A DNA stretch of 64,000 nucleotides from positions 11,805-75,804 of the forward strand of contig JAZSQE010000053.1 of the NCBI GenBank assembly GCA_045537795.1. The letters run 5' to 3'. Every line of letters starts with the position of its first letter. Positions within the stretch are counted from its first letter, which is position 1. The translations under genes and the position numbers were made by a program. Of this stretch, positions 10,183 through 30,903 are shown piece after piece. The notes under the pieces were generated by a model that searched no databases, was not told the DNA's origin, and saw nothing but the letters and a program-made list of their open reading frames with translations. The stretch is from Kiritimatiellia bacterium. Lineage in GTDB: Bacteria > Verrucomicrobiota > Kiritimatiellia > RFP12 > UBA1067.

Positions 10183-10838
10183 TTATCGCGGTAGAGAGAG
10201 GGATCGGGCGACATCCGGCACCGCCGCAAGCAGAAGTTTTGTGTATTCGGATTTCGGATTGCCGAACACTTCCGCCGGAACACCGGTTTCCACAAACTCG
10301 CCGCGACGCATTACACATACGTGGTCGCACACATTCTTCACCACCGCCAGATCGTGCGCTATGAGCAGAATAGCAAGACCCAATTCATGGCGCAGATCGC
10401 GAAGCAGGGTGAGAATACGGACCTGCACACTGACATCGAGCACGCTGACCGGTTCGTCCGCTATCAACGCTTCCGGTTCGCAGGCCAAGGCTCTGGCTAT
10501 GCTTACCCGCTGACACTGCCCCCCCCCGACATCTCACGCGGATACTGGTCCAGCACCGATTTGCTCAACCCCACCAGATCCATGAGCTCTTCAAGACTAC
10601 GGCGGCATTCCGCGCCCATTCTCCGCCGGATTGCGCACACCTCATTCACCGCTTGCCTCACGGTCTTGCGGGGATTGAGCGAACCGGCAGCATCCTGAAA
10701 CACCATCTGCACCGACCGCGCTCTCGCGACGGCATGATCATCCACCACCAGCGCCTCAACAACACCTGTTGGCGACCAGCAATACATTTGACGAGTGCGT
10801 TCCATTTTCTTGACTATGAAATTCACCTCGCGAACCAT
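10183..10838 (-). pseudogene. Oligopeptide/dipeptide-type ABC transporter ATP-binding protein (OppF/DppF-like), 5'-truncated and frameshifted
   Basis: Fragments [27 protein letters not shown] and [14 protein letters not shown]...LIAHDLAVV are typical of this family. There is no Walker A. The frame breaks in a C9 run (10519-10527), and the N-terminal end is replaced by AT-rich island sequence. Confidence 0.75.
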
Positions 10839-15525: not shown

Positions 15526-17782
15526 TATGGATCAATGCCAATTGGCGCATCGCTTGAACCACAGTGGTTACTAACTGCACTGCCTCTTTAGGATCAAAGC
15601 CTTGCCCCCAAATCTTCGGCACCGTACCATTCCATGTACGCGATAGAAGTTTCTCAATGCCCATATCTGGCTGCGTAGAAAACAGTAATTCATACATCTT
15701 AGACAAAACAAAACTATATTCGGCCTTGGGATCAATTATGGCGTGATAATACCAAACAAAAACCCCAACAAACAAAGCAAAACTAAGACAGAAGTTAAGT
15801 TTGCCGCGTACAGCCCACTCGGGGAAAGCCAACAAATTACGCGGAACTGGGGACAACAATAATCGATGCATATACCTTGACTGGCGCGATAAAAAAGCAG
15901 CCTCTTCATTTCGACCGCGCGACCTCAAAAGTTCAGAAAGGGTACCACATATAGCCGACATTCCACTCTCAAACATCTCTTCTCTTACTGCGCCATTCGA
16001 CGACCGGCAAATCTGCCACAAGGAATTATGGAGATCCACCCACCGATCTTCCATGTCCAATCGCGCTCGGACGCCCGGAAACTCACATTCTGCCAACACT
16101 TCGCAATAATGGCGCAACCCCAACGCTTCAATGGACAATGCAGGCGTTTTGTGCCCAAGCAACTCGTAAGCACATGTGGACAACACCGCTGCACGAATGG
16201 CATCTTCTATACTTTTACCTCTATCCTTAATCGTACGAGCACGGTCAATCAAATCTGTCGCTACATCCAACGTCATACCATATGCAGAATGATTCGAATC
16301 AGGAACTTCTGTTCCTGTTATGGTCGGCATCATTCCTTTTAGCGCATTATGAAAGATATGCGAAATCATTTGAGCATTTAATTGCCCGTCGAAATGGCAA
16401 CCATTAGGTAATCCACATTGGTTTCGCAATCCAAATATTCCTCCGAGCGGCTTGCCAACAAGACACCAGTAACGTGTTTTGCTTGATTGAATCTGATGTT
16501 GCGGAAAGTGATTTGTGTACAGTTTTGGACAAAATCGCCACTGAGAACGAATTTTAAAAAATGTCTGAACACGAGAATGATGACCAAACAAAAACAACAT
16601 TCCCTTTACAATTATGTTACGACACAATCCAAATGCGCCAAAAATTAGGAACAACGATGGTATAAACATTATTGGCATGTAAATCAGAAGCCACACCAAA
16701 GCCCACACAATAAATGCGCATTTAACTATATTCCAGACCCAAACATCAGCTAATCCACCAGCGAAAAGGTTAAAAGCCTGCCGACGTGCCTTTTCAACCG
16801 CACTTTGGATAGGCTTCATCTTTGTTTGCCTAAGGTCTTTAACATCTGCTCCACGAAACCACGAATCCGCAGTAATGGATATTTGCGCTTTGCGACTTGA
16901 ATCAGGTGCGCCTTTATCATGTTTCCGAGCAATCTTCTCTTCTGAACCTGCCGCTGTCGCCAATACGCGCAAATTGGCACTCTTCAGTAAAGGCCAGACA
17001 TTATCACGCCCATCACCCAAGAGATGCGCCTTGTTCTGCCTTTGAGTCAAATCAGGAAATTCAATATATCCATCCTCAAAAACAATCAACGATGAATCGG
17101 AAGACACTGTTGCTCTCGCAAACGATGGCAACTTCGTCTTATCACTGACAGATAACACTTGTTCCGCCAATCGTGCCGTAGAAACGGGATACACTCGATA
17201 GCCAAAGCGAAACGCCGTATAGGCAGCTAACTCTGCGAAGTGCTTTTCCTCATCAATCGATACCGCAACATCATCTCGATTATAAGGGTAAGCGCTATTT
17301 GTTTTGTGGGTTCTAATTAATTTACTACGAACACCCATCCCATCAAATATTGGATTAAAACCACCTAATGCCAATTCCACTGCGAGTTTTACATGTTCCC
17401 TAGAAATCTGATCTTCTCCCTTAAACACTGGTACCCAAAGGACATCGGGGAATGCCAAAATCAAAAGTCCCTGCACAGATTGCAAAGATGGCATTTCACT
17501 AAGATCATTCCAAAGCCGTGCATCTAGAATCGCAACAAATCGATCAGAAGGATTGACATCCCCTATTGCCGCACCTAAAATCTCAGCAATTTCATGAAAC
17601 GATTCCCGAACATCCCCCATAAACCTTGTAGGTGTCAACGACAGCTGGGGAATGATTCTCTGTTCAATTGACACAGAAGGGATGCTCTCCTTCAAACAAT
17701 TATATTGAGCATCAATCCATTGCCGACACAGTTCATTAGTGCCGCATGATTCCCTATCTGCTATCACCCAGCAATGCACCAT
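15479..17782 (-). CDS. Hypothetical large membrane protein (767 aa; about 340-aa N-terminal soluble domain, central TM bundle, alpha-rich C-terminal domain)
   Basis: Long ORF in the island II operon. Hydrophobic segment VWVWNIVKCAFIVWALVWLLIYMPIMFIPSLFLIFGAFGL. Confidence 0.5.
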   Translation of the reverse strand: MVHCWVIADRESCGTNELCRQWIDAQYNCLKESIPSVSIEQRIIPQLSLTPTRFMGDVRESFHEIAEILGAAIGDVNPSDRFVAILDARLWNDLSEMPSLQSVQGLLILAFPDVLWVPVFKGEDQISREHVKLAVELALGGFNPIFDGMGVRSKLIRTHKTNSAYPYNRDDVAVSIDEEKHFAELAAYTAFRFGYRVYPVSTARLAEQVLSVSDKTKLPSFARATVSSDSSLIVFEDGYIEFPDLTQRQNKAHLLGDGRDNVWPLLKSANLRVLATAAGSEEKIARKHDKGAPDSSRKAQISITADSWFRGADVKDLRQTKMKPIQSAVEKARRQAFNLFAGGLADVWVWNIVKCAFIVWALVWLLIYMPIMFIPSLFLIFGAFGLCRNIIVKGMLFLFGHHSRVQTFFKIRSQWRFCPKLYTNHFPQHQIQSSKTRYWCLVGKPLGGIFGLRNQCGLPNGCHFDGQLNAQMISHIFHNALKGMMPTITGTEVPDSNHSAYGMTLDVATDLIDRARTIKDRGKSIEDAIRAAVLSTCAYELLGHKTPALSIEALGLRHYCEVLAECEFPGVRARLDMEDRWVDLHNSLWQICRSSNGAVREEMFESGMSAICGTLSELLRSRGRNEEAAFLSRQSRYMHRLLLSPVPRNLLAFPEWAVRGKLNFCLSFALFVGVFVWYYHAIIDPKAEYSFVLSKMYELLFSTQPDMGIEKLLSRTWNGTVPKIWGQGFDPKEAVQLVTTVVQAMRQLALIHIGFLAALFYDFMHRK

Positions 17783-17803: not shown

Positions 17804-18799
17804 TCAATCCGTATCAGAATCACTCGCCCTAGAATGATTCATCGTGTGATCCCCACTTCCCGTTCCTTCTTCATGGAATGAGAATAAGATACCAAATTGA
17901 ATCACAACAAACACAAGCCCCAGAACTCCAAAACCTAATTCTGTCGCAAAAGAACGACCCTGAAAGCTCTTCATCCAAGCTAATACAAAACCACATACCA
18001 ATTCCAATAATACGATTAACTCAAGGACATGCTTAATCCTTAATGGCAATGTGGCAAACTTACTTCCATTCGATGCGGATTGCGTAGCTGTGTCGGCAGA
18101 AGAGATGGTATTACCAGTGGTAGATTCGACAAGATGAACAACATTACCTACGGAACTCCTATTTGTGCCAAACGTAGATGTTGCAAGTTTAGCTGTCTTG
18201 AAAGATTCGGGAACTTCAACACACCAACCCTTACACCCCTCTTCCAAGACGTCAAGAACCTCTTGCAGGCTACTTGGCAACAACAGGATATTACCACCAA
18301 CATTCTTCCTTGCCAGTAGCCATGACTGATTAATACTAGTACCATTGCGGGAAATGGCCATGCATAAGAAATTTTGTTTAGCTCTGTTGTCAAGAGCTTT
18401 CCATGCCAGCCCCAATCGTTCGTTCGCCTGTTTATAACTATTATCACCAAAATGGATAAAAACACAAATTGGCGCATCCTTGAATTGTGCTAACTCGTCA
18501 CAAATTTCGATTTTACGTCGCAATGCAAGGTTAAAAGCATGCATCTTAGAGACACGAGATTCAAAATCCTCGTTACCGCAAGTGATGGAATCGATGAATG
18601 GAGAGACATCAACATCATCTGGCGACAAAACAATTGAGGGAATAGGAGACTTACGCACATAGGCAATGAACTTGGGATCTGAGTTCAGCAGATATTTTTT
18701 CGGCTCAGAGCCAAAATCGCTCTCATCATCCGAATTTACTTTCCAGCGCCAATTCTGGATGTCGCCAGGATCAGCAGAATGAACAAATACACTAATCAT
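17804..18799 (-). CDS. Hypothetical protein (331 aa): about 220-aa soluble domain, S/T-rich linker, C-terminal 2-TM anchor
   Basis: 8-bp overlap with the upstream 1613-aa gene; no recognised motifs. Confidence 0.5.
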   Translation of the reverse strand: MISVFVHSADPGDIQNWRWKVNSDDESDFGSEPKKYLLNSDPKFIAYVRKSPIPSIVLSPDDVDVSPFIDSITCGNEDFESRVSKMHAFNLALRRKIEICDELAQFKDAPICVFIHFGDNSYKQANERLGLAWKALDNRAKQNFLCMAISRNGTSINQSWLLARKNVGGNILLLPSSLQEVLDVLEEGCKGWCVEVPESFKTAKLATSTFGTNRSSVGNVVHLVESTTGNTISSADTATQSASNGSKFATLPLRIKHVLELIVLLELVCGFVLAWMKSFQGRSFATELGFGVLGLVFVVIQFGILFSFHEEGTGSGDHTMNHSRASDSDTD

Positions 18800-21700
18800 T
18801 GCTATTATTCCTTTCCGGTGATCCCGGCAGAATGCTCATAAGGGAATTCACCAAGTTCAGTTTTTCTGGATATCGTTTAAAGAGGAATGCCTCTATAGAG
18901 GAAAATGCCAACACCTTCTCGTTGTCCGGAATATTATCAGGACGACCACGACCTGTGGTCACTACGACAAAGCGACCATACCCGTGCCCGTCAGAATGTC
19001 GCAAATGATCAAGGATAACCTTGACATTCTTCTTGCTATGTCCTTTCCACCACTTGTCGATGATGCCCTGATGAATGACCACAAGATCAAAATCGAAATC
19101 TGTTTCATTAGAATGTTCAGATTTGAACAACGTACCATCCACATATTTCAGGCTCTTGAAGTCAAGGGAATCTGCCACGACTTTCGGCTTTTCCTGTGTA
19201 TCAACGACCGCAATGCGCATTGATGCATATGTCTTTTGTATCTCTTCGCCGTGATCGGCAACAAAAGCACGAACACGTTCATCAATAATTACGATTCGCA
19301 GCAAGCCATTTTCAGCCAGTCTCATCGCCCATTGCACGTCCTGACGCGATAAGTTCGCAAGTGCATTCAAATAAGTCTGAGAACCGCTAAGTGGTTCGCT
19401 GTACAGCATGGCACCATCCGTAGCGTGGCGATTATATGAAATAACAGCATCTTTACCATTTCCCCCATAGAAGATTTCCAGACCTAGATTACCAGTAAAG
19501 TCAAGTTTACCGCTCACATCAGATCCTACACCCTTATATTGTCGTGGCAAAGTTACTATACGCTCCTCATACTTTCTTAAGAATACATCACCTGTTGTAC
19601 GAGCGACATCTAAGGCTTCTGCCGCCCGTTTGATAATCAAAGACTCTACGGGTGTAGTGGCCATCGTATCCAATTCCTGCAATAACATAGAGTCCCTACC
19701 GCCTCTATCAATGGAAGATAGTTCATCAAGAAGCGACTTGGCAATAACTGGCGGATATTTCATGGTCTCTGTCGCCCGTTCAAGCCCTGCTTGATATGCA
19801 CAAACAAGCCGTTTCCACTTATCACATTCTTTTTCTTCGTGCACACATGGCAATGACGTCCAAAATAGACTAACTTTTTCGGCAATTCTCCCAAGGATAC
19901 TCTCTATCTTCAGTCGATGATTACCTGTGAACTTTTCTTGCACGGATTCAAACAATTTATCATTTTCATCCAAAGGATAAAGCGACAGAAGGAGGAGTGC
20001 CTTGCGCTGCGTCGGCGTCATTTTCAGACAGTCATCAACTATTGGCTCCAAGACAGAATGCAAACACTCACGAAAGAGCACCTTATAAATATCCCTATCA
20101 CTGACGAGACCTTTTTCGCATCCTTGGGTGTCATAGATATTCAATTTAATCGTCAATTCGCTATCTTCTACCCCTCGGCGACGTTTAAGATATTCCAGCC
20201 ATGCTCTATATACAACTGACACCAACTCATTGTGGTCAATATTTTTCAGCGATGCCCCTGAGATGTAAGGCGCAACCTTGTTTCCTTCACCTGTATAATC
20301 AACAAACAACGTACGGAACGGCAACTTCAACGCCTCGTCTGAAATCATCTTTTTGTCATGGTCAATGACAATAAACTCATAGTCGGACATCAAGCCAACG
20401 TCACCCTTTTTGTCATGAGTCCCGAAGATACGCGCATACGATTCCACTCCAAAACCATTTGTTTCTTTGAACAAATTCCATTTCGAGATGTCATCCGCTA
20501 CAATTAAAATACTTCTAGGGAGTTTAATCCAAAATCGGTATGCTAAACGTAATTCCTTATAATCCAGTTTGCCATTTTGCTCATTTCGTGGAATCCCAAC
20601 AGGGACAATAAGCGGATGTTTGCCCACTTCATCCGCAATTCCTCCTATCACGGATATCTCCGCCCGTCGAAGATATCCAGCAGAAATCTTCATCTCTGAC
20701 AAGCCCCAAGAGGCCTGCCGCAATCGTTTTGTTTCTGAATCAATAAACGGCTTCGCTAATTCAATTTCCTGACGATGATGCAAAGGAAGAGGAAGCCTAT
20801 GACCCAATGGGGCGTCATCACTTGCAACAGACACATCGCCACTCAACAAAGAACGGAAGGTCCCATCTCCTCTCAACGACTCCCAGTTCGCGCTAACATA
20901 ATCATAAAGAACCCTGTAGAACCACGGTAATGAATTTCGCTCGCCTTTTCCTCTTAAGAACTGTTCTATGGCGTATCGCCTGGAAATCTCCGTGCCGGAA
21001 GATTCCTTTGAAGTCTTTGGCAAAACCAATTCCCCATCCAAAGGTGAAGCAAATACAGAAACCAAATCTTCATACTTGTGGTCTTCGGGTAACTTGGCAT
21101 TCGCAAAGAACATTGGCCAGAAGGTTCCTGCAAACAACCTAGACATGTTATCCCCTATCGCAAAACAGACCATCCCTTCTTCCTGGCGTGTATCGAAATC
21201 AACATATATCTCTAAATTGCCCGCTGCTTCCCGTTCACCAGCGCTCTTCCCTGCCCATGAATGCTTCGCTGCATTACGCAAAATATTCTCAATGACATTG
21301 TAAAATGCTTGCTGCCCCAAAATTCCACCGGGGATGGACATGACCTCATCATTCTTCCAAATCACAGACTGCTCTGGGGCATGGAAAAATTCATATGCAT
21401 CAACGCAACGCTTGTTCGGAAGATTCTTTCGCGACCATCCCTCTGGCGGCACGTCGGGAACCTTCTCTCCATCTTTGTACCGCCTAATTCGCCGAACGAC
21501 AATCTTCACACAATTCTCCTGCAAATCACCAGACACCGTTCCTTTCCCTTGGTACTGGTAAGCATGCAACCCATCACTCTCCGCAATATGGTCCAGTAGA
21601 TGCCTCTGAGAATAGAAAGTCTTCATCACACTTCCAACAAAAGGAGTCGGAACAGACCAGTCTGGAGCTCCCATTGTTGCAGAAGCGATGTAGTCCATTC

Positions 21701-23633
21701 GATGCTGGATGTATTGATACAAAATCCGATCGTCAGGCATCGTTCCAACATTGTGCGATAATGCCGACAGTACATGACTACCAATATTGTGGGAACCATT
21801 GCGAGACATAATGGCGCCGATTGCAGACTTACTATTGGCAATTCTTAACGCCTCGCTCTTTCGCCCGTTAAAATATATTGATAGCAATTGCCTTGTCGCA
21901 GTAGAAAGTACCTGTATGATTGGAGAGGAAAGCCGCCTCCCCACAACTACCACCAACATGCCTGTATCATCATCCGCCACATAAGGCACACAATATATGT
22001 AATTATGCTTCTTCGCCACGGCAGCAATGAACGCGGTTCTTAGCCCCTCAAAGTCTTTTTGTCTCCAATCAATGCGAGAAAAGCGATTTTGAAAAATAAC
22101 TTCCCTCGTTTCAGTCACAGAAACCCCAATCGGTGTACATGAGTCCGAGACAAGCCATTCCGGAACTGTTACATGACGATTACGACAATCCAACCACAAC
22201 CTTTTAACCGTATTGTCAGGAAAATCTTCTGACGAAAGATTGATTTGCAATGCTGCGTTTGAGTGCCCGAAGCCTTTTACGAATGACTCCATAAAATCCA
22301 ACAAGCAATTATTTAAATAATTTGCATCATCATTATCATTTTCATCGATTCTATTCAACTTTTTTATAGCGCCATTTTCAAAAGAACAGAACACTGCCGC
22401 AACACTATCTTCCCCCGAATCAGGGCTTACCAACTTTCCGACATGAGAACTCGCATTGTGAAACGTATTTGCAACGTCACTCAGACCATCATCATCATCC
22501 AACTCTTTCACAAAATCAGCTGAAATGCAATTTATATCATGTAGAAACCTTGCAATCTCAGTTAATCCAACGGATTGAGATGTCACGTCAACGATATTTT
22601 GAATCCACTTATCTGCTTTAGAATCATAAGACATTTTCCAAAGAGATAGTGGCATGGCCATGTTCCCACTATCAGCAATATTCAACACTCCAAATGGAGA
22701 TACATAGGTTCTTACCAAATGCCAGTCGAGTTTATTTGCCTTAATGAGATATCCCAAATATCCAAAGATAGTCTTTATAAGATTACGGTAAAATAATGCG
22801 ACATCGGACAATCCTATTCCTGTATAAAATATTGCCTTATCTCTAAACGGGAACTCCTTCAAGCCTTTTAGATGAGGCACCAAGCCTTCAATCCCTTCCC
22901 CAATTGACAACGCTACATTCGTAAATACATACCCATTATAATTATGTTTAGCAAGAAACTCAATAAGAGACTTATGTCCGTGATCCGCATATCCAGAAAT
23001 GAATATGGCGTCTGTATGGAGCAATTGCGCCATATCTTCATCAGTAAGTTTGCCATTAAATTCCCATTTTTTGAACAGAGCAACCTTGTAAAGACCATAT
23101 TGCCTGCAAAGCAGACTCTCAAATATATTGCAATGCTCCAATGGAGCCTTTGCATCTAGCGCCGCCAACCCAACCGTTGGGACATCACCTTTATTGGCAA
23201 TCGTAATTCTCTTTTTAAACAACCAGTTAAACAATATAAACGTCTCATACTCTTGTGTAAACCAGAACTTTAAATGCTTATTTTTTTCACCACGATCAAC
23301 ATCAATACCTGTTATAACGGTGGCTGTGCCGACAATTTCATTTGCTGGAGGGATCTTGAATGCATCAAAAAGTTTAACAGAGGCATCATCTCCAAAAACC
23401 AAAACAAACTTCGCCCCACCACAAACCAACTCATTATATGCAGATAAAACATTATCGTTAGTTATATCTTTAGGAGTTTTCCATTTGTCTGCCTCTTTTG
23501 AAAAAATGGGGACGAGACCACCACCACTCACCTCATTTGCTAAATCATTGATGAAATCAGCAACATTCCCGTTGGCGATTATGATTTCCCTCATATAAGA
23601 TGGCAACAAGAATCCTATCTGCGTTTCTGTCAT
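18792..23633 (-). CDS. Giant (1613 aa) cytoplasmic multidomain protein: LivK-like type I binding fold, HisKA-like H-box, GHKL (histidine-kinase-type) ATPase, receiver-like segments
   Basis: No TM helix. aa 60-240 resemble the LivK fold (SAYNELVCGGAKFVLVFGDDASV...; HTDAIFISGYADHGHKSLIEFLAKHNYNG). aa ~610-625 SHNIGSHVLSAL resembles a HisKA H-box (SHELRTPLTAI). aa ~775-792 FYNVIENILRNAAKHS is a GHKL N-box. aa ~824-834 FAIGDNMSRLF is a G1 box. aa ~1040-1095 SILIVADD...YEFIVIDHD and aa ~1446-1525 RIVIIDE...DLVVIHQGI are receiver-like. Confidence 0.6.
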   Translation of the reverse strand: MTETQIGFLLPSYMREIIIANGNVADFINDLANEVSGGGLVPIFSKEADKWKTPKDITNDNVLSAYNELVCGGAKFVLVFGDDASVKLFDAFKIPPANEIVGTATVITGIDVDRGEKNKHLKFWFTQEYETFILFNWLFKKRITIANKGDVPTVGLAALDAKAPLEHCNIFESLLCRQYGLYKVALFKKWEFNGKLTDEDMAQLLHTDAIFISGYADHGHKSLIEFLAKHNYNGYVFTNVALSIGEGIEGLVPHLKGLKEFPFRDKAIFYTGIGLSDVALFYRNLIKTIFGYLGYLIKANKLDWHLVRTYVSPFGVLNIADSGNMAMPLSLWKMSYDSKADKWIQNIVDVTSQSVGLTEIARFLHDINCISADFVKELDDDDGLSDVANTFHNASSHVGKLVSPDSGEDSVAAVFCSFENGAIKKLNRIDENDNDDANYLNNCLLDFMESFVKGFGHSNAALQINLSSEDFPDNTVKRLWLDCRNRHVTVPEWLVSDSCTPIGVSVTETREVIFQNRFSRIDWRQKDFEGLRTAFIAAVAKKHNYIYCVPYVADDDTGMLVVVVGRRLSSPIIQVLSTATRQLLSIYFNGRKSEALRIANSKSAIGAIMSRNGSHNIGSHVLSALSHNVGTMPDDRILYQYIQHRMDYIASATMGAPDWSVPTPFVGSVMKTFYSQRHLLDHIAESDGLHAYQYQGKGTVSGDLQENCVKIVVRRIRRYKDGEKVPDVPPEGWSRKNLPNKRCVDAYEFFHAPEQSVIWKNDEVMSIPGGILGQQAFYNVIENILRNAAKHSWAGKSAGEREAAGNLEIYVDFDTRQEEGMVCFAIGDNMSRLFAGTFWPMFFANAKLPEDHKYEDLVSVFASPLDGELVLPKTSKESSGTEISRRYAIEQFLRGKGERNSLPWFYRVLYDYVSANWESLRGDGTFRSLLSGDVSVASDDAPLGHRLPLPLHHRQEIELAKPFIDSETKRLRQASWGLSEMKISAGYLRRAEISVIGGIADEVGKHPLIVPVGIPRNEQNGKLDYKELRLAYRFWIKLPRSILIVADDISKWNLFKETNGFGVESYARIFGTHDKKGDVGLMSDYEFIVIDHDKKMISDEALKLPFRTLFVDYTGEGNKVAPYISGASLKNIDHNELVSVVYRAWLEYLKRRRGVEDSELTIKLNIYDTQGCEKGLVSDRDIYKVLFRECLHSVLEPIVDDCLKMTPTQRKALLLLSLYPLDENDKLFESVQEKFTGNHRLKIESILGRIAEKVSLFWTSLPCVHEEKECDKWKRLVCAYQAGLERATETMKYPPVIAKSLLDELSSIDRGGRDSMLLQELDTMATTPVESLIIKRAAEALDVARTTGDVFLRKYEERIVTLPRQYKGVGSDVSGKLDFTGNLGLEIFYGGNGKDAVISYNRHATDGAMLYSEPLSGSQTYLNALANLSRQDVQWAMRLAENGLLRIVIIDERVRAFVADHGEEIQKTYASMRIAVVDTQEKPKVVADSLDFKSLKYVDGTLFKSEHSNETDFDFDLVVIHQGIIDKWWKGHSKKNVKVILDHLRHSDGHGYGRFVVVTTGRGRPDNIPDNEKVLAFSSIEAFLFKRYPEKLNLVNSLMSILPGSPERNNSND

Positions 23634-23705: not shown

Positions 23706-24815
23706 CTATTTTCTCCGAATATATATCTTTGTAATCAACTCTCCAGATTGGTCAAACTTGGCCCTCCCGATGACACTTGAAACTTCGCCCATAGCTATCA
23801 ATGAATCTTCAATATCGACACCGTCCTTAGCGGACAAATCAATGGCACGGCACAGCACATCAACAGAAAAATACGCAAAAGCAGAATGTGCATTAGGCTG
23901 ACCAGTAAATCTGGTTTCAAATGAACGCACAAATTGCAAATAATATGAGGACTCTTTATCATCTGGGTCAAATGCTGTAGAACAGTAATATACTCCCTTC
24001 GCACCATCAGAAATTTTTTCAGCGTATCCAGGAATTGTCACAACCTCATCAGTTAAAATCGCGCCCGAATACCTTGCTTCCTTAAGTTGATTAAATACCG
24101 TTATATAACCAGGGCCAAATCCAAAAACAAAAACTGAATCTGGATGGGCAGTCAAAATCTTACTAATCTGACCACGCACATCCTGAGCGCCAATTTCAAA
24201 TGTCTCTGATAAAATATCAACACCATTTTTTTGCGCAAATGCACGAACAGTTTTTTCTGCCTCATCGCCAAAGTTGTTATTTATAGCCAAGACAGCAAAC
24301 TTTGACGATCCCAAATCCGAGTGCGCAAATTCGGCCAGTCGCATACAAGAATCTCGAGTCGTAGTCCAAGCACGAAAATAATGAGGCGATAACGATGGTA
24401 TGTTTTCGGCAGCAGCAGAGAGTGCTATTGTCGGACAAGGATGCGCATTAACGGTAGCTGCAAGATTATAGCATTGCACATCACCAAATACGATACATGC
24501 AGTAATATTATCACGAATCAACTTTTGATACGCAGAAATCGTTGCCGCCGACGTCGACTTCCCATCTTCAAACAAGATTTTAATTTTTTTCTGTTCCAAA
24601 GTACGAGTTCTATTAGCTTCGTCTTCTGCTATCTTCATCGCGCACATCATTGGCGCTGCAAGATCTGACGATACTCCTGTCAAAGGGAGAATTGCTCCAA
24701 TTCGAATAACAGTATCATCATTCCCTCGCTGAAAGTTCTTAAATACCCCAATAACTACAATAACCGCAACCACAATTGCACTAATGATTATCAACAACTT
24801 TTTATTCTTCTTCAT
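23706..24815 (-). CDS. Membrane-anchored LivJ/LivK-like (Peripla_BP_6 type I) ligand-binding protein, 369 aa
   Basis: N-terminal TM anchor (LLIIISAIVVAVIVVIGVF). Blocks IRIGAILPLTGVSSDLA, ACIVFGDVQCYN, SKFAVLAINNNFGDEAEKTVRAFAQKNGVDI and PDSVFVFGFGPGYITVFNQLKEA align with LivK. First gene of the island II operon; AT-rich. Confidence 0.7.
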   Translation of the reverse strand: MKKNKKLLIIISAIVVAVIVVIGVFKNFQRGNDDTVIRIGAILPLTGVSSDLAAPMMCAMKIAEDEANRTRTLEQKKIKILFEDGKSTSAATISAYQKLIRDNITACIVFGDVQCYNLAATVNAHPCPTIALSAAAENIPSLSPHYFRAWTTTRDSCMRLAEFAHSDLGSSKFAVLAINNNFGDEAEKTVRAFAQKNGVDILSETFEIGAQDVRGQISKILTAHPDSVFVFGFGPGYITVFNQLKEARYSGAILTDEVVTIPGYAEKISDGAKGVYYCSTAFDPDDKESSYYLQFVRSFETRFTGQPNAHSAFAYFSVDVLCRAIDLSAKDGVDIEDSLIAMGEVSSVIGRAKFDQSGELITKIYIRRK

Positions 24816-24866: not shown

Positions 24867-25103
24867 TTACGGGCTTTGACAAAATCCTGTGAGACCTCCA
24901 TGTCTGCTTTCGCAGTACGAAGCAAACTGGAGCATGCAGTTCGCGTTTCCCAATTGCGCACCACGCATGAAGCACTCGATGGCTTTCTGTACGTCGCCGA
25001 CATTCTCGTTGGCATCGTCAAACAGGTATCGATCGCATACCTTCGGCCCATTCAGCATCTCCATCGGCTTTAGGCGTGAAGTTCTTAACCCAGTTCGTAT
25101 CAC
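24867..25103 (-). pseudogene. Sel1-repeat protein fragment (78 aa ORF)
   Basis: AIECFMRGAQLGNANCMLQFASYCESRHGG is Sel1/TPR-like; it is too short to be a full gene and sits at the island junction. Confidence 0.3.
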
Positions 25104-25588
25104 CCATTAAAGTCCTCCTTGCCCTTGCTTGCGGTGCCGCGCTTGGGCGTAATTTCCGACTCCATGAATGTTTCATCAACCACGACCTCCAACTTATCTA
25201 CCGCTTTCTTGATTTTCGGAATTATATGATGCCCCCAAGGTACTTTCATCAAATCAATCATGCTGTTATCTTCCACAACTTGTGGAAGATAACGGTATAG
25301 TTCGTAAAACCGCAACGCATACCGTATGTTCGATGGCGAAAGTCCAATGGGATTGGGAATGTCAAGGCAAAGGTCGTTGCTGAGATTCTCGAAGAAATGC
25401 GCATTCCGCTGCTTGCCGGGGTACATTGCCGCAATGTCTCGTCCAAGATCCCAATAGAACTCCAGCATTGCAGAGTTGACTGCTACCGCCGCCTTTATCT
25501 GCGTAGCGCGATAGCGAACCTTGAGTTCTGCAATCCACTTGCGGTACTCCTTTGCCGAGGATAAATCTATATTACTGCGCCGTTTCAT
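25100..25588 (-). pseudogene. YhcG/DUF1016 (PDDEXK nuclease family) N-terminal fragment; the C-terminal nuclease domain is missing
   Basis: EYRKWIAELKVRYRATQIKAAVAVNSAMLEFYWDLGRDI and KVPWGHHIIPKIK match the YhcG N-domain (the IPWGHNILLL block). The ORF stops after 162 aa. Confidence 0.5.
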
Positions 25589-25770: not shown

Positions 25771-26484
25771 TCACTCAAAATAATTCTTTGCGAGCCAGTC
25801 GGCGTCAAGGAACTGCCCGGCGTCAGAAGTCTCGGATCTGACCTTGCCCTGCGACAGGAATACGGCACGGTCGATCCAAGCGAGAAGATCGAGACGATGC
25901 TCCACCATCAAAACCGCGCGTTTCGCGTCCTCCTTCGCGAAACAGCGGACGCGCTCAATAATATCCTTTGCCGCCTTGGGTGAAAGCCCCGCCGATGGTT
26001 CGTCGAGAAGATAGAGTTTCTGCGGACGCATGAACACCATCGCGAGAGCAAGCGCCTGGCGTTGTCCGCCGGAGAGCGAACCCGCGCGCTGGCCGAGCTT
26101 CGGCACGAGGAAGTCGAAGAGCACAAGCATCTCTTCACGCGCGGCGGCGTATGCCGTCTTCGTAAGCGACATCCCGGCAAGCTGCAAGTTCTCCTCGACG
26201 GTCTGCCCGGGAAAGATGTTGTCTGTCTGGCGCAGATAGCCAAGCCCAAGGCGCACACGCTCCTCGACTGACTTGCCCGCCAACGTTTCTCCGCCGAACG
26301 CGATATCGCCCGCCGTGAGCGGCAACGCACCAACCGTCGCCTTGAGGAGCGTCGACTTCCCGCAACCGTTGGGCCCGGCGACAAGAACCGACTCCCCTTC
26401 CGCGACAGAGAGACTCACTCCGTTCAACACAGGCCTCTCGCCATATCCGCAGAAGAGATGATCAACAGACAGAATCACACTCAT
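25771..26484 (-). CDS. livF: Branched-chain amino acid ABC transporter ATP-binding protein LivF
   Basis: Walker A GPNGCGKST, LSGGQRQ, Walker B LYLLDEP, H-loop MVEHRL; last gene of the livHMGF order. Confidence 0.85.
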   Translation of the reverse strand: MSVILSVDHLFCGYGERPVLNGVSLSVAEGESVLVAGPNGCGKSTLLKATVGALPLTAGDIAFGGETLAGKSVEERVRLGLGYLRQTDNIFPGQTVEENLQLAGMSLTKTAYAAAREEMLVLFDFLVPKLGQRAGSLSGGQRQALALAMVFMRPQKLYLLDEPSAGLSPKAAKDIIERVRCFAKEDAKRAVLMVEHRLDLLAWIDRAVFLSQGKVRSETSDAGQFLDADWLAKNYFE

Positions 26485-27968
26485 ACAAGCACCACCCACT
26501 TGCCACCGCGATCCGCGCCTTCGCGCTTAATAATTCCATTTAGTCGAAGCATTCTAATTGCGTTTTTAACCGATCCATTAGAAAGTTTTGCAATTGACTC
26601 AAGCGTTTCAATAGAGACGCTACTATCTCTTTGCAAAGCATTGAAAACCGCGATTGCATTATTGATAGCGTCTATACGCCCCTTTCCATTCAATTTCTGG
26701 GCAACTTCCGCACTTTTCTGGGCAACTTCTATGCCTTTCAGGGCAACTTCCGCGCCTTTCTGGGCAACTTCCGAGCCTTTCGGAGCAACTTCCAGAGATT
26801 GAATAAATATTTCTGTTCGGAAAATATCCCCATCAGCCAGCCGGGGGTCTAAGCCGCCATAAGCCCTTGCATATTTAAAAAGATTGCGTATACCGGATCC
26901 CAATTGATCGGCATAGCCGATAACTCTAAAGAAGTTCGCTATTATCGGATTTCTCGGATTCGGCATAAAATTGTCGGGCGTCAAAACATCTCCGCTTGAT
27001 GCCCGGCAGGCGTTTTCCACAAACATACGGTCTCGCTCGATGACAAACCTTGCCGGACGCGAACTCGTGAATTCACGATGGATAAGGGTGTTCGCAATAA
27101 TCTCGCGAACGATGATTTCGCGCAGACTTTTACGGACATCCCCCTCCAGAAAGAACGGATCGGGAAGATGCTTGCTCGCAAATTCCACGAGGCGGTCGTA
27201 GGCAGATATCAGATTGACACTGACTATATCGCGGTCATCGTAGCGGTCGATGTTCCTGACTCGCAAAATGGCATCTGTAACGTAAGCAGGGCAAATGTCC
27301 TTAATGACATCTTCCGTCCCGAGCAGCATGACGGCGGCAAGGTTGAAACCGCTCTTACCGGACTCGCGGTCTATCCCGATCAGTTTTGCGCTACGCAGAA
27401 GCTGTTCATCGTCCATATCCATCCACGGATGACGGCGTTCATCACGACTGTTGTTCTGCGCACGGATACGAAGTCTCTTGAGATCTGAAAGATCCAAGTC
27501 CGCCTTCTTCACATATGGATATATTTTCTGTTCGGTAAAAATGCCTTGCTTGCGCAAGATCATCATTCCTTTCGCCGCCGTCGAACGCACACGCACGTCC
27601 GCATCCCCGTTGCGGTCGAAAACGACACCTTTATAGGAGTGAACTTCGCCGCTCACGGGAACGCGAACTCGAATGATCGTCTTCCCGTCGTACTCCACAA
27701 TTTCCGGTGCAATGTAGGCAACGGGATCAAACAAATTGCCGTCGTTCGCGACATTCATGATGTTGTTGCGCAAGGCAACGGCATCGCCCTTGATGCCGAC
27801 AACCGTTCCGTCATCCTCCACACCAAGCAGCACTTCACCACCGAACCTGTTCAAGAACGCGCAAATCGACTCAAACACGTCGGATTCAACGCCGCCGGAG
27901 CAACGCTTGAACTCGGCAGTGAGACCCTCGCCACTTTTCAACAATTCCAACAGCCGCGTATCAGTCAT
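26481..27968 (-). CDS. AlbA_2 (Schlafen-like) plus HATPase_c_4 ATP-binding domain protein with a C-terminal wHTH (putative regulator), 495 aa
   Basis: N-terminal LLELLKSGEGLTAEFKRCSGGVESDVFESICAFLNRFGGEVLLGVEDDGTVVGI matches AlbA_2. Contains an in-frame 7-aa x5 repeat. The start overlaps the livG stop (ATGA) and the end overlaps the livF start. Confidence 0.7.
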   Translation of the reverse strand: MTDTRLLELLKSGEGLTAEFKRCSGGVESDVFESICAFLNRFGGEVLLGVEDDGTVVGIKGDAVALRNNIMNVANDGNLFDPVAYIAPEIVEYDGKTIIRVRVPVSGEVHSYKGVVFDRNGDADVRVRSTAAKGMMILRKQGIFTEQKIYPYVKKADLDLSDLKRLRIRAQNNSRDERRHPWMDMDDEQLLRSAKLIGIDRESGKSGFNLAAVMLLGTEDVIKDICPAYVTDAILRVRNIDRYDDRDIVSVNLISAYDRLVEFASKHLPDPFFLEGDVRKSLREIIVREIIANTLIHREFTSSRPARFVIERDRMFVENACRASSGDVLTPDNFMPNPRNPIIANFFRVIGYADQLGSGIRNLFKYARAYGGLDPRLADGDIFRTEIFIQSLEVAPKGSEVAQKGAEVALKGIEVAQKSAEVAQKLNGKGRIDAINNAIAVFNALQRDSSVSIETLESIAKLSNGSVKNAIRMLRLNGIIKREGADRGGKWVVLV

Positions 27969-28780
27969 ATCGCCATACCTCCCGAAAGCCCCATGTAGAG
28001 TTCGCGGACAGCGGGATTCTCCAGAACGTCCTTCTGAGTACCATGAGTATGAACAGTTCCCTCGTGCAGAAAATAGATGTAATCCGCAAGTTCTCGCACC
28101 ACACCCATATTGTGCTCGATAAGCGCGATTGTGAGTTTCCGCTCGGCAACAAGCCTGCGGATCAGCCCGACCATCTTCTTCGTCATCGCAGGCGAAAGCG
28201 CGGCCGTCGGCTCGTCGAGGAGCAGAAGCGCCGGACGCAACGCGACAATCCGCGCAAGCGCGAGAAGCTTCTGCTGTCCATACGAAAGTTCACCCGCCGG
28301 AATATCCGCCTTGTCCGCCAGACCGACAAATTCGAGCCACTTCATCGCGCGTTCGCGCCGGTCTTTCTCGCGCGCTTCGCGCAGCCACCAGGCAAGCGTC
28401 GTGAAAAGCGAATAATCGCTGCGATGCAGGAAGGAAACCGCGATATTCTCGGCGGCCGTAAGCTCAGGGAACACGCGCACATCCTGAAAGAGCCGTCCGA
28501 CATGGCACCGCGCAATCTTGTACGGCGGAAGGCCCGTGACATCCTTCCCGTCAAGAATCACCCTCCCTGAATCAGGCGTCAGATTGCCGCCGATCAGATG
28601 AAAGAGCGTCGTCTTGCCTGCCCCGTTCGGCCCGACAAGCGCCGTGACCTTGCCGAGCGCAACGGTCAAACTCACGTCCTGAAGCGCCTTGAACGCGCCG
28701 AAGCTTTTCGAAATCCCTTCAACGCGAAGCTCAACCGGATTGATAACGCGCGGATCGCTCTTACTTGACTGCATACGCAC
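27965..28780 (-). CDS. livG: Branched-chain amino acid ABC transporter ATP-binding protein LivG
   Basis: GPNGAGKTT, LSYGQQKLLALAR, LLLLDEP, IEHNM, C-terminal LYMG. Confidence 0.85.
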   Translation of the reverse strand: MRMQSSKSDPRVINPVELRVEGISKSFGAFKALQDVSLTVALGKVTALVGPNGAGKTTLFHLIGGNLTPDSGRVILDGKDVTGLPPYKIARCHVGRLFQDVRVFPELTAAENIAVSFLHRSDYSLFTTLAWWLREAREKDRRERAMKWLEFVGLADKADIPAGELSYGQQKLLALARIVALRPALLLLDEPTAALSPAMTKKMVGLIRRLVAERKLTIALIEHNMGVVRELADYIYFLHEGTVHTHGTQKDVLENPAVRELYMGLSGGMAI

Positions 28781-29630
28781 CTGCCAATCCTTTGGGTTTC
28801 ATGTACACAAGAACGATCAGCAACACGCCGTAGATTATCTCGCGCAGATTCGCCGCGACCGCATCCGGAAGGCCGACAAACCTCAAAAGTTCAGGAAGAA
28901 CAATCATGAACACAACGCCGGACATAGGGCCTGCGATATTGCCCGATCCGCCGACAAGCAGAATGCAGGCTATGAAAATCGACTCTGAAAGCGTGAAACT
29001 TGTCGGATCGATGTAGGTAATGTAACTTGCGAAACATACGCCCGGCACCGCGGCGACCGCAGACGAAAAAACCATGGCCTTGATATACTGCCCCTTGGGA
29101 CAGATGCCCAAGGTCTGCGCCGCGGCCTCGTCGTCGCGCAGGGCTTTGAGCGAAAGCGCGAACGGACTTTGGACGACAAGATGCATAAAAGCGAGAACGA
29201 GGGCAAAGAGAACGAGAGTGAACACGAAATATGCAGGCACGGATTCTATACCCATACCGAAGAATTCAGGACGCGGGATCCCCGAGATTCCATACGGTCC
29301 GCGCGTCAGATCGGTCCAGTTGTAAAGAACGACATAGACGATCATCTGAAATCCTATCGTCGCCAGAACGAATGCTTCATTGCGGAATCTGAGCGCGGCA
29401 TGTCCGAACAGCCAGCCGACGAGCGCGCAAAGCGCGACAGCAGCGGGAAGCGTCACATAGAACGGAAGCCCCAATTTAAGCGACAAAAGCGCGTATGCGT
29501 AAGCACCAAGTCCGTAAAAGACGGCCTGCGCCATCGTAAGAAGCCCGCCGAACCCGATCAGCAGATTGGTCGAAAGAGCCAACATCCCGTAGATGCCCAG
29601 CATCACGCCGATATGAAGAAGATAATTCAT
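28761..29630 (-). CDS. livM: Branched-chain amino acid ABC transporter permease LivM
   Basis: Multi-TM permease; the start was reset to MNYLLHIG (an ATGA overlap with the livH stop); the upstream ORF extension is spurious. Confidence 0.75.
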   Translation of the reverse strand: MNYLLHIGVMLGIYGMLALSTNLLIGFGGLLTMAQAVFYGLGAYAYALLSLKLGLPFYVTLPAAVALCALVGWLFGHAALRFRNEAFVLATIGFQMIVYVVLYNWTDLTRGPYGISGIPRPEFFGMGIESVPAYFVFTLVLFALVLAFMHLVVQSPFALSLKALRDDEAAAQTLGICPKGQYIKAMVFSSAVAAVPGVCFASYITYIDPTSFTLSESIFIACILLVGGSGNIAGPMSGVVFMIVLPELLRFVGLPDAVAANLREIIYGVLLIVLVYMKPKGLAGAYAVK

Positions 29631-30519
29631 TTGGACTCCTCCAGTCGTTTGCTCACGCCGAAAAGCCCCTGCGGACGGAACATCAGAACGAAAATCAAGA
29701 CGCCGAACGTCACAAGATCGGTCCACCGTGCCGAAAGCTGCCAAACGGCAAGGCTTTGCAACGCAGAGAGGAGCAACGCACCCGCGCCCCAGGCCCAATA
29801 TCTGTCGGCACCCCCGAAAAACACCGCTACCGAACCGAGCAGAAGATAGTGCATACCGACATGCGGATCCATTCCGATATCCCATGAAATCAACATCGCC
29901 GGAATCGCCACCAGCACACCGCCAAGCATCATAACACCAAGACGCAACCGACGCACAGGCAGCCCAAGGACGGCCAAGAGTTCAGGCTGGTCGCCCATTG
30001 CCCACAACGCCTTGAACCATTTGCCGTAGCGCACCGCCATACCGACGGAGGCGAACACACCGAACCCGACAAGGAACTGAAGAACCTGAATGCGGGTAAA
30101 GCGGAGTCCTGCAAACACGACGGACGGCTCCAATTGATTTGAAATCGTTTTCACCTCATTCCCGTAAATGAGCGCGATGACATTTTCAACAACAATCATG
30201 ATACCGAGCGAAGCGATCATCATCACGCCGGACGAGCAGCGCTTCCGGGCAAACGGATGATAGACGGCACATTCGATCAGCACGGCGAAAACAGCCGACA
30301 GCGCCAGCACCGCCGGCACCGAAACCGTCAGCGGAAGTTTACACACCGCTGCGCACGTGTAGAACGCATAGCACGAAAACACAAACTGCGCTCCCATCGC
30401 TATGTGAAACACGCGAAATGACCTGTAGACAATGCCAAAACCGGCCGCGTACAGCATCGCGACCGCACCTTGCACAAGGCCGTTACCGAGAAGCTGAGCA
30501 AATAGCGAACTTACAAACA
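29627..30519 (-). CDS. livH: Branched-chain amino acid ABC transporter permease LivH
   Basis: Multi-TM permease. The likely start is the ATG at 30517-30519 (MFVSSLF); the ORF-track start is a TTG further upstream. Confidence 0.75.
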
Positions 30520-30552
30520 TTTTACATTTCAAATCATTTGGTCGGTTCAACC

Positions 30553-30694
30553 GAACGAGCAAGTCCGCGTGGTTACGCGATCTTTATATCTGTCCGCTTA
30601 GGGGGTGGCGAGAGCTCCTTTCAAGATCGCCGCATTCCTTCGCTTGACGCCAAGTATTATAGCAAAATTATATTGTTTTGTGTCGCCACCTTCT
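30553..30694 (+). repeat. 142-bp repeat copy B
   Basis: Aligns to 9871..10012 with 4 mismatches; lies 33 bp upstream of the livH ATG and abuts the hcp fragment. Confidence 0.85.
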
Positions 30695-30903
30695 CTTTTG
30701 CGCTGAAACTGAAGGAAGCTTTGGGGCTTGCCGACATCAATGAGCTGCCCGTTTCCTACAACATCGCCTGGTACGAACCAAAAGCGATCATCGTGCTCTT
30801 AGCGCTGCTGCATCTCGGCGTCAAGAACATCCGCTTAGGTCCAACACTACCCGCGTTCCTTTCGCCAAACGTCACGCCGACCGTAAAACATCGATGCCAT
30901 TAA
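30695..30903 (+). pseudogene. hcp: 3'-terminal fragment (about 69 codons) of a hybrid-cluster protein / hydroxylamine reductase gene
   Basis: [55 protein letters not shown] matches the Hcp C-terminus. Upstream of 30695 it is replaced by repeat copy B. Confidence 0.6.

Follow-up and report, generated by a model that had tools for sequence, protein, structure and literature searches.

Some histidine kinases are tied to ABC transporters, as in the BceS-BceAB and PhoR-PstSCAB systems, where the kinase reads transport rather than an external ligand and is a membrane protein that contacts the permease. In Pseudomonas aeruginosa, amides are sensed in the cytoplasm by the LivJ-like AmiC, which works as a separate protein and sequesters the antiterminator AmiR. 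In LuxP-LuxQ and BasB-BasT, a solute-binding protein (SBP; members of Peripla_BP_6 are included) feeds an adjacent signalling protein, and in such SBP-dependent receptors the SBP docks on the sensor domain that a transmembrane receptor exposes outside the cytoplasm (PMC8050422).

The window analysed here is a 64,000-nucleotide stretch of contig JAZSQE010000053.1 from a Kiritimatiellia bacterium. It contains the gene for a 1613-aa protein, hereafter BIG, which we somewhat favour reading as a soluble, highly divergent sensor histidine kinase, the central component of a signalling module that the operon encodes and that is tied to an ABC importer of the Liv type (hydrophobic amino acid/amide), with kinase activity, ligand and output all predicted. 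As in the BceS and PhoR systems, the kinase-like gene is linked to an ABC transporter, judged from gene context, and BceS (8g3a) is among the structural matches of the BIG core; BIG differs in being soluble, in the Liv/HAAT type of the importer, and in having long forms with an internal binding-protein fold. With AmiC (1pea; Foldseek E=5.7e-9) BIG shares an intracellular type I periplasmic-binding-protein (PBP) fold suited to small-molecule sensing, but in BIG this fold is joined to a kinase-like core, and the neighbouring genes encode an exported, paralogous PBP together with the ABC importer that this PBP serves. The adjacency of an SBP gene and a signalling gene recalls the SBP-dependent receptors; since BIG has no transmembrane (TM) segment, the docking route of LuxP-LuxQ and BasB-BasT is not available to it.

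A soluble protein encoded beside a Liv-type importer

BIG is confirmed as a real 1613-codon ORF on the minus strand, and its last 8 nt, which include the stop, are also the first 8 of the next gene (features are collected in Table 1). A Kyte-Doolittle scan of the whole protein finds no hydrophobic segment, in agreement with an earlier sequence-only reading that had proposed a cytoplasmic protein without a TM segment. The motifs quoted in that reading all lie in the BIG translation at the residues it gave: VLSAYNELV... at aa 62-86 and HTDAIFISGY... at aa 206-234 in the N-terminal region, the H-box-like motif SHNIGSHVLSAL at aa 614-625, the N-box motif FYNVIENILRNAAKHS at aa 777-792, FAIGDNMSRLF at aa 824-834, and the spans from SILIVADD to YEFIVIDHD (aa 1041-1093) and from RIVIIDE to DLVVIHQGI (aa 1446-1524).

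Searches of Pfam, NCBIfam, PADLOC and PDB sequences with BIG return nothing significant, and the N-terminus alone as a word-search query gives no matches. Orphan status was nevertheless rejected: a word-indexed search of BIG gave at least three matches, and an exhaustive profile search gave 2,936 cluster representatives, every named one of which is called "hypothetical". These representatives, together with a homolog at 59% identity that has the same neighbour genes, make BIG far more than a chance ORF. Family members have a variable N-terminus, with occasional methyltransferase or PF01555 fusions, and a conserved core of about 1,000 residues, and occur in gut- and rumen-relevant lineages that include Prevotella, Bacteroides, Akkermansia, Kiritimatiellia and Lentisphaeria. 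Short proteins of 550-830 aa found downstream in Bacteroidota-type loci had been joined to the family by single linkage only; they do not match the BIG core and are therefore a separate family.

The gene order LivH-LivM-LivG-LivF-PBP followed by BIG is conserved across phyla, in most loci. Among the 36 loci with enough upstream DNA, a PBP gene lies no more than three genes upstream of BIG in 28, ABC ATPase genes are present in 29 and permease genes in 25. The PBP of the window was expected to be a membrane-anchored LivK-like protein directly upstream, and it does match Peripla_BP_6 and carries a single N-terminal hydrophobic segment; it can be assigned only generically to the HAAT family, which gives no clue to its ligand. 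Rfam detects no riboswitch in the window and only one tRNA, and sigma-54 promoter-like sites are not enriched there (16 against about 26 expected). We rejected the idea that a 20-kb block splits one ABC ATPase gene into 31044-32075 and 10183-10838: the former ends as a complete, different ABC gene, and the fragments at the latter are a separate DppF-like pseudogene fused to a regulator stump.

Table 1. Features of BIG and its locus (positions within the window; aa, residues of BIG)
Feature	Position	Strand	Evidence
BIG, whole gene for 1613-aa soluble protein	18792..23633	-	ORF; hydrophobicity scan
Type I PBP-like domain, no signal peptide, aa ~1-350	22584..23633	-	hhalign, AF2, Foldseek
Two linker helices and alpha/beta domain (412-564), aa ~351-569	21927..22583	-	Model secondary structure; Foldseek 5ere
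DHp-like helical hairpin with S-R-N-x-S-H615-N-x-G-S-H, aa ~570-655	21669..21926	-	Model helices; conservation
His615 codon, predicted phospho-acceptor	21789..21791	-	100% conserved, 193 relatives
Histidine-kinase-type ATP-binding (CA, Bergerat fold) domain with large insert, aa ~656-1010	20604..21668	-	
Alpha/beta segment with degenerate acidic pocket ('REC1', SILIVADD...YEFIVIDHD), aa ~1011-1170	20124..20603	-	Model
All-helical bundle, aa ~1171-1360	19554..20123	-	Model helices 620-794 (aa ~1179-1353)
Beta segment and C-terminal alpha/beta domain, aa ~1361-1613	18795..19553	-	Model; conservation
Operon PBP: Peripla_BP_6, HAAT family, N-terminal hydrophobic anchor or signal	23706..24815	-	Peripla_BP_6 E=1e-42
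Liv-type ABC importer gene block as a whole	25771..30562	-	
LivF	25771-26499	-	
Schlafen-AlbA_2 gene, inserted between LivG and LivF	26481-27968	-	
LivG	27965-28780	-	
LivM	28761-29885	-	
LivH	29627-30562	-	
g331, predicted TM segments	17804-18799	-	
g767, predicted TM segments	15479-17782	-	
g374, predicted TM segments; true start probably 15468	14401-15525	-	
g404, distant AGE-superfamily epimerase-like	13133-14347	-	N-acetylglucosamine 2-epimerase 6f04, E=4e-5
g769, N-terminal TM segments	10823-13132	-	
22-codon stump of REC-TCAD9 response-regulator gene, fused to DppF-like ABC pseudogene	10710..10779	-	

The binding-protein-like domain and the kinase-like core

In an hhalign comparison with 36 operon PBPs, namely that of the window and 35 from related loci, aa 47-333 of BIG match at a probability of 98.1% (E=1e-13); Pfam itself gives no match to this domain. 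The AF2 model of the region (pLDDT 79.9) has 652 Foldseek matches at E<=1e-3, with LivJ/LivK SBPs, AmiC and the ANP receptor at E=1e-9 to 1e-14 and TM scores up to 0.68; the LivJ/LivK-type SBPs among them score E=1e-10 to 1e-11 and TM 0.62-0.68. A LivK/ANF-receptor-like fold had been proposed for aa 60-240, and the alignments and the model bear this out for a domain of about aa 1-350. The PBP profile also matches the N-termini of many BIG relatives (E down to 4e-12), and the module recurs in many long members of the family. The Kyte-Doolittle scan shows no N-terminal hydrophobic segment on this domain, and thus no export signal, which places it in the cytoplasm, as in AmiC. It has the fold of an SBP yet does not serve the transporter as one.

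In the AF2 model the alpha/beta domain at 412-564 runs straight into the kinase helix, and from its modelled fold it is tentatively described as PAS/GAF-like. The top Foldseek match to aa 1-620 is 5ere (Dret_0059; E=8.7e-14, 647 aligned columns), which we take to join a solute-binding fold to sensor domains of the PAS-like type. Its annotation is that of an extracellular ligand-binding receptor, and no kinase is fused to it, whereas BIG is cytoplasmic and continues into a DHp-CA arrangement. This domain and the helical bundle at aa ~1179-1353 account for part of the approximately 700 residues in which no motif had been recognized.

The core is modelled with higher confidence (pLDDT 86.8, pTM 0.86). 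Helices 570-628 and 635-654 (model numbering 11-69 and 76-95) form a hairpin, with His615 on the first helix about 13 residues ahead of the loop, and R611, N612, S614, H615, N616, G618, S619 and H620 are each kept in 193/193 relatives, so that the H-box-like motif seen near aa 615 now sits in a DHp-like structure around an invariant His. The adjoining domain has a Bergerat fold that is structurally of the kinase type, with the boxes E782-N-x-x-R-N787-A-A-K-H (N-box), D828-N-M-S (G1-like) and W976-G-L-x-E-M-x-I-S-A-G (G2-like). In the same 193 relatives the N-box residues E782, N783, R786, N787, K790 and H791 and the G2 residues G977 and E980 are 100% conserved, and the N-box call at aa ~775-792 stands with both of its Asn residues. 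The G1 call at 824-834 fares less evenly: D828 is present in BIG, but the family never has DxGxG and keeps the Asp in only 48%, so canonical ATP binding is not assured.

Profile searches do not recover this resemblance. HATPase_c scores 13.9 bits on BIG against a cutoff of 26.4, below significance, Pfam HisKA does not match it, neither model matches any of 30 relatives, and the family profile run against PDB sequences returns only low-complexity helical designs and no kinase; the H-box His is conserved throughout the 193 relatives. Like the sensor histidine kinases SrrB (6paj), CpxA (4biz), HK853 and ThkA, BIG has a His hairpin that precedes a Bergerat-fold domain, where the N-box contains two Asn residues and the G2 glycine is present, and many BIG loci encode receiver-domain partners nearby. 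It differs from canonical kinases in the missing Pfam matches, a unique H-box (SRNxSHNxGSHV), the non-canonical G1, about 140 residues inserted after the G1-like motif and before the G2-like one, the lack of a membrane anchor, and a conserved C-terminal extension of about 600 residues that is not known from any described kinase. On the model and the conservation, aa ~570-1010 probably comprise a DHp hairpin and a histidine-kinase-type ATP-binding domain with putative kinase activity.

Downstream partners and the C-terminal region

The three membrane partners g331, g767 and g374 are 99-100% identical in a near-identical locus, L003; g331 and g767 are a single fused protein in L061 (a 53% relative) and in L063, and the g767 family is present in 13 loci. 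Homologs of g404 and g769 lie in the same order in L061 (89% and 23% identity), and both genes belong to the operon in this BIG subfamily. Co-occurrence of BIG with its downstream genes, which the sequence-only reading had put forward as a check, is seen in L003 and L061; it does not extend to the Bacteroidota-type loci, whose partners have no detectable homology to the five of the window. In L003 and L061 the operon closes with a REC-TCAD9 gene, and the stump in the window matches, at 97% identity, the 5′ end of the complete L003 gene (660 aa). With the regulator gene truncated, the signalling pathway is probably incomplete here. Genuine REC proteins are encoded in 12 of the 36 loci, either as REC with Sigma54_activat and HTH_8 (NtrC-type) or as REC with TCAD9; the other two thirds, including all Bacteroidota-type loci examined, have no receiver gene nearby.

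Two segments of BIG itself had been called degenerate REC domains. At most, a resemblance of fold supports this, and the sequence comparisons do not bear out REC homology for either: Response_reg gives no Pfam match on either segment or in 30 relatives, hhalign against the genuine REC domains of related loci gives 2.6% for aa 1041-1165 and 1.0% for aa 1433-1613, and there is no conserved acidic pocket. In the first segment D1091 is conserved in 39% of 193 sequences and D1047/D1048 in 25-29%, compared with 96% for R1107; in the second, His1521 (98%) takes the place of Asp at the position read as the end of beta3. Calditrichota and Acidobacteria carry the gene in split form, with the break near residue ~1065.

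The C-terminal alpha/beta domain of about 250 residues matches no Pfam family (aa ~1361-1613), is a separate gene in some relatives, and equals the kinase motifs in conservation, with R-H1403, E1413-x-L-S-G-x-Q, D1451-E-R, H1521-Q-G-x-x-D-K and T1559-T-G-R-G-x-P-x-N-x-P kept in 91-98% of the 193 sequences. Reading LSGSQ...IIDER...H as an ABC/SMC signature, Walker B and H-loop was rejected, as hhalign against 55 LivG/LivF ATPases found nothing. A speculative suggestion, to which we give limited credence, is that this domain is of a new kind, either a phospho-acceptor or a catalytic output, such as a receiver-like fold in which His replaces the acceptor Asp; this would explain the two thirds of loci that have no conventional response regulator.

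Proposed mechanism, competing explanations and significance

Direct contact with the external PBP is impossible for a protein without a TM segment. In the mechanism we propose, the importer would bring a small ligand into the cell, where the PBP-like domain of BIG would bind it; in family members that have no such domain, the kinase may read transporter activity instead. Ligand or transport state would then control autophosphorylation on His615, and a receiver protein would take over the phosphoryl group: in the subfamily of BIG this would be REC-TCAD9 (with a kinase-like output), in other subfamilies a sigma-54 activator of the NtrC type. Additional output or docking modules may be provided by the conserved C-terminal domain and by the membrane partners g331, g767 and g374.

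The residue that follows His615 is Asn, where HisKA kinases have an acidic residue, a point against the kinase reading. It is conceivable, if rather unlikely, that BIG retains the histidine-kinase fold without classical ATP hydrolysis or autophosphorylation. It would then bring together the transporter, the membrane partners and the C-terminal domain, either as an adaptor that binds ATP or a ligand or, like ChpT, as a His phosphotransfer protein. The invariance in 193/193 relatives of the Mg-binding N-box Asn, the adjacent K-H and the G2 glycine is difficult to account for if no nucleotide is bound, BIG itself keeps the G1 Asp, and a third of the loci encode genuine receiver partners, all of which speaks against such a scaffold. 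A GHKL ATPase of the MutL/Hsp90/MORC type that acts on DNA or proteins, already disfavoured, is very improbable: it has in its favour a generic Bergerat-fold resemblance and the occasional methyltransferase and PF01555 fusions, whereas comparison with the MutL, Hsp90, GyrB and MORC ATPases found neither structural similarity nor a transducer domain.

We also think it improbable, slightly more so than the scaffold, that the operon is a mobile system for biological conflict (defence or competition) in which BIG senses or switches and the effectors are the kinase-like TCAD9 protein and the variable membrane proteins encoded downstream. The block is low in GC (~43% against ~59%) and flanked on both sides by 159-nt direct repeats, downstream cassettes vary by lineage without detectable homology, g404 reaches 89% identity between loci with only 53% in the kinase, N-termini are highly variable (methyltransferase fusions among them), and the defence candidates PDC-S02/DUF1016 and Schlafen-AlbA_2 sit inside the transporter operon. 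According to its Pfam description, TCAD9 is named for association with 'ternary' systems, which are treated as conflict systems (Kaur et al. 2020). Against this, the 2020 eLife survey of ternary systems does not describe the BIG family and reports no histidine kinases there; no PADLOC model matches BIG, its five downstream partners, REC-TCAD9 or the Bacteroidota-type partners; and no BIG relatives are found on viral contigs. Defence systems do not usually include an entire, conserved ABC importer of the amino-acid type and its PBP, and NtrC-type transcription activators as partners fit regulation better.

On the sensor-kinase reading, the near-constant linkage of the BIG family to an amino-acid/amide-type ABC importer points to an undescribed coupling of nutrient import to two-component signalling and, with the reused binding-protein fold, provides a testable model in which uptake is coupled to signalling without a membrane-spanning sensor. 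The strongly conserved C-terminal domain joins the candidate signalling or enzymatic modules, and were it the acceptor, the BIG family would be a self-contained signalling device that reads Liv-type importer flux. Two-component systems are well catalogued, yet this family of some 3,000 clusters escapes every Pfam and NCBIfam model; if its kinase activity is confirmed, censuses based on HisKA and HATPase_c would undercount the signalling repertoire of these organisms.

The kinase-like core and the C-terminal half

BIG, a 1,613-aa soluble protein, is encoded by a 1613-codon open reading frame in a region of low GC content (about 43%; the window's right half has about 59%). Pfam returned a sub-threshold HATPase_c match (residues 775-829; 13.9 bits, cutoff 26.4) and no match to Peripla_BP, HisKA or Response_reg, and searches of BIG against NCBIfam, PADLOC and PDB sequences were without a match. 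The five genes downstream (g331, g767, g374, g404 and g769) likewise had no match in Pfam, PADLOC or NCBIfam. Every BIG motif quoted in the sequence-only reading is present at the residues assigned to it, and hydropathy scans bear out the lack of a transmembrane segment in BIG. In the LivK-like neighbour upstream, a Peripla_BP_6 protein, they show one N-terminal hydrophobic segment, an anchor or a signal.

For BIG residues 560-1613, AlphaFold2 gave a confident model from 56 sequences of the family (mean pLDDT 86.8, pTM 0.86). Its first element is a long hairpin of helices (residues 570-628 and 635-654), in which His615 lies ~13 residues ahead of the loop, and an alpha/beta domain comes next. 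Conservation was scored over 193 aligned relatives, and 100% of them retain R611, N612, S614, H615, N616, G618, S619 and H620 of the H-box, which is unique to the BIG family, E782, N783, R786, N787, K790 and H791 of the N-box, and G977 and E980 of G2. Taken together, the modeled fold, the conserved His and the elements that bind Mg and phosphate point to a module of the histidine-kinase type, as had largely been anticipated from the sequence. The adenine-binding motif is atypical, and BIG falls outside formal kinase profile membership. The proposed G1 box, FAIGDNMSRLF, is found where it was placed, but its D828 (D-N-M-S in BIG) is conserved in only 48% of the 193 relatives, and DxGxG occurs in none.

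Past the kinase domain, the model consists of an alpha/beta segment (~1011-1170), a helical bundle (~1179-1353), a small beta unit and a second alpha/beta domain (~1433-1613). Receiver-like segments had been proposed at ~1040-1095 and ~1446-1525, and neither could be established. In the first segment (~1011-1170) the would-be acceptor Asp is 39% conserved and the acidic pair of beta1 25-29% among the 193 relatives. The C-terminal domain that holds the second ranks among the family's most conserved parts in the same alignment, with the motifs D1451-E-R (93-94%), H1521-Q-G-x-x-D-K (96-98%) and T1559-T-G-R-G-x-P-x-N-x-P (91-98%); R-H1403 and E1413-x-L-S-G-x-Q are 92-94% conserved. A resemblance of the C-terminal motifs to an ABC signature and Walker B was tested and rejected. 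The BIG protein of Calditrichota and Acidobacteria is encoded by two genes, with the break near residue ~1065; in loci L024, L025, L027, L029 and L030 these are adjacent, specifying an N-part (~650-750 aa) that includes the H-box and ATPase, and a C-part of ~542 aa. This split shows the C-terminal half to be a separable module. In L025, L027 and L030 two different conserved genes, of clusters c18 and c19, take the place of the Liv genes upstream.

The N-terminal domain and the extent of the family

The LivK/ANF-receptor-like fold proposed for the N-terminus of BIG was recovered by sequence and structure comparison. With hhalign, residues 1-575 of BIG (three sequences) were aligned to 36 PBPs (35 from related loci and the window's own), placing BIG 47-333 on PBP 83-368 (probability 98.1%, E=1e-13), and MAFFT independently placed the PBPs on the same region. 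A Foldseek search with an AlphaFold2 model of residues 1-620 (pLDDT 79.9, pTM 0.74) gave 652 matches at E<=1e-3. The leading ones were binding proteins of the LivJ/LivK type (TM up to 0.68, E=1e-10 to 1e-11), together with AmiC, the ANP receptor and domains of the mGluR type. The best match, spanning 647 columns, was 5ere, in which PAS-like domains are joined to a binding-protein fold. This layout agrees with a second alpha/beta domain of the model (residues 412-564) that runs straight into the kinase helix and that we infer to be PAS/GAF-like.

A word-indexed search with BIG returned, among the matches listed, BIG itself, one 59% relative and one distant protein. When 1.84 billion cluster representatives were searched exhaustively by HMMER, using a profile built from residues 560-1613, 2,936 proteins reached E<=1e-3 and 960 reached E<=1e-30, which rules out BIG as an orphan. 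Family members are mostly 1,000-1,900 residues long, all carry the source name 'hypothetical protein', and in all members examined a conserved core of ~1,000 residues reaches the C-terminus, behind an N-terminal extension that varies (0-780 residues). Genomic relatives occur in Lentisphaerota, Kiritimatiellia, Verrucomicrobiota (including Akkermansia), Bacteroidota (including Prevotella and Bacteroides), Calditrichota, Ignavibacteria, Elusimicrobia and Acidobacteria; none were found on viral contigs. The operon-PBP profile matches the N-termini of many long members (E 4e-12 to 1e-3), and the cytoplasmic PBP-like module is therefore a recurrent family variant and no peculiarity of the BIG gene. 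Some relatives (P0018, P0061, P0096 and others) have a class I SAM-dependent methyltransferase fused to the N-terminus, a few have PF01555 in its place, and in locus L037 and nine others the methyltransferase is a separate gene beside the PBP gene.

Operon organization and the window copy

Gene maps of 55 genomic loci reveal a recurring order of LivH-LivM-LivG-LivF-PBP, an optional gene (in many cases for a SAM methyltransferase), BIG, and another two or three genes. Counted over the 36 loci that have 6 kb or more of upstream sequence, a PBP is encoded within three genes upstream of BIG in 28, ABC ATPases are present in 29 and permeases in 25. The operon PBP belongs to the hydrophobic amino acid/amide (HAAT) family, its best solved relative being LivK TM1135 (E=8e-14). 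Receiver proteins are encoded in 12 of the 36 loci and are of two kinds: NtrC-type (REC, Sigma54_activat and HTH_8), and REC fused to TCAD9, with weak matches also to APH/EcKL/Kdo kinase-like families. Downstream partners vary with lineage, and no homology was detectable between those of the window type (membrane proteins g331 and g767) and those of the Bacteroidota type (a soluble ~600-aa protein and a protein with 6-9 TM segments). Two further genes lie within the window's transporter block. A Schlafen AlbA_2 insertion as in the window is also present in L001, L008 and L015, and longer DUF1016 genes occupy comparable places near transporter genes in L011, L014 and L061.

Coordinates of features in the window and in related loci
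Feature	Locus	Position	Strand	Remark
Low-GC stretch	window	2000-10000		second such stretch, 40-50% GC
M48-peptidase paralogs	window	3622-5981		three in tandem, in the low-GC stretch
483-aa protein	window	6734-8185		no Pfam match; lipoprotein-like signal sequence at start
PEGA + PD40 protein	window	8238-9680		beta-propeller
Direct repeats, 159 nt	window	9854-10012; 30537-30695		96% identical, 20,683 bp apart
DppF/OppF-like ABC ATPase pseudogene fragments	window	10183-10838	-	frameshift at G-run
Match to start of L003 REC-TCAD9 gene	window	10779-10710	-	70 nt
g404	window	13133-14347	-	
Match to L003	window	19659 to 14351		99.5% identical
BIG	window	18792..23633	-	
PBP	window	23706-24815		
DUF1016_N fragment	window	25100-25588	-	162 aa, between LivF and PBP genes; matches defence-candidate PDC-S02, E=3e-29
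Schlafen AlbA_2 + HATPase_c_4	window	26481-27968	-	495 aa, between LivG and LivF; partial match to pAgo-associated PADLOC models, E=1e-8
Repeats in Schlafen AlbA_2 gene	window	26694-26798		four overlapping in-register 42-nt copies, 21-nt spacing (7-aa repeat)
g404 counterpart	L061	19586-20800		
g331-g767 fusion	L061	14811-17870		1019 aa
g331-g767 fusion	L063	13962-17057		1031 aa
SAM methyltransferase	L037	7586-8215		separate gene

The metagenomic contig L003 and the window are near-identical over a stretch that reaches from within the BIG gene to g374. On L003, g404 and g769 are then missing, and an intact REC-TCAD9 gene (660 aa) comes next. Only the start of that gene matches the window, where the frame then enters the DppF-like pseudogene; the first pseudogene fragment is a chimera whose 5' end is a 22-codon REC-TCAD9 stump. 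Locus L061, whose kinase-like protein is a 53% relative, has the order LivH-LivM-LivGF-PBP-BIG, a g331-g767 fusion, homologs of g374, g404 and g769, a pentapeptide-repeat protein and REC-TCAD9. The receiver gene thus stands last in the operon, and the window copy has lost it. The fuller L061 order also makes g404 and g769 parts of the system. The g404 product is a distant relative of the AGE superfamily (N-acylglucosamine/cellobiose 2-epimerases, E=4e-5) and shares 89% identity with its counterpart in L061, against only 53% for the neighbouring kinase-like proteins, which suggests that the g404 cassette was recently exchanged between operons. The fusions in L061 and L063 suggest that the membrane proteins g331 and g767 work together. 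The direct repeats bracket the block from LivH to the stump and suggest that this unit of ~20.7 kb came in, or was rearranged, as one mobile block; neither an integrase nor a tRNA adjoins them.

A proposed transporter-coupled sensor and its alternatives

The domain make-up, residue conservation and synteny of the BIG family are direct observations, and we classify BIG as a histidine-kinase-like two-component sensor. The best-supported reading, which we give somewhat better than an even chance, takes BIG for a sensor histidine kinase that is soluble, has diverged very far and is coupled to the Liv-type ABC importer. The imported compound would be bound by the cytoplasmic PBP-like domain, by analogy with AmiC; in short family forms the kinase might read transporter activity, as BceS or PhoR. 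Autophosphorylation would occur on His615, and the phosphoryl group would pass to the REC-TCAD9 or NtrC-type regulators. In the LuxP-LuxQ system the exported binding protein stimulates LuxQ (PMC8050422). Stimulation of this type by the exported PBP is impossible for BIG because it has no membrane segment.

A kinase-dead scaffold or a phosphotransferase would also fit the degeneracy of the G1 box and the finding that most loci encode no receiver, but we consider this interpretation unlikely. The island context, the variability of the cassettes, TCAD9 and the nearby defence-candidate genes would suit a mobile conflict system, but this has no PADLOC support at all and seems quite improbable. Least credible is a core of the MutL/MORC-type ATPase kind, against which the structure searches speak and to which we assign hardly any weight. 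Beyond one odd fusion, the analysis of the putative sensor kinase exposes a large, unannotated family that is linked to transporters, is marked by a unique H-box and, of further interest, carries a highly conserved C-terminal domain.
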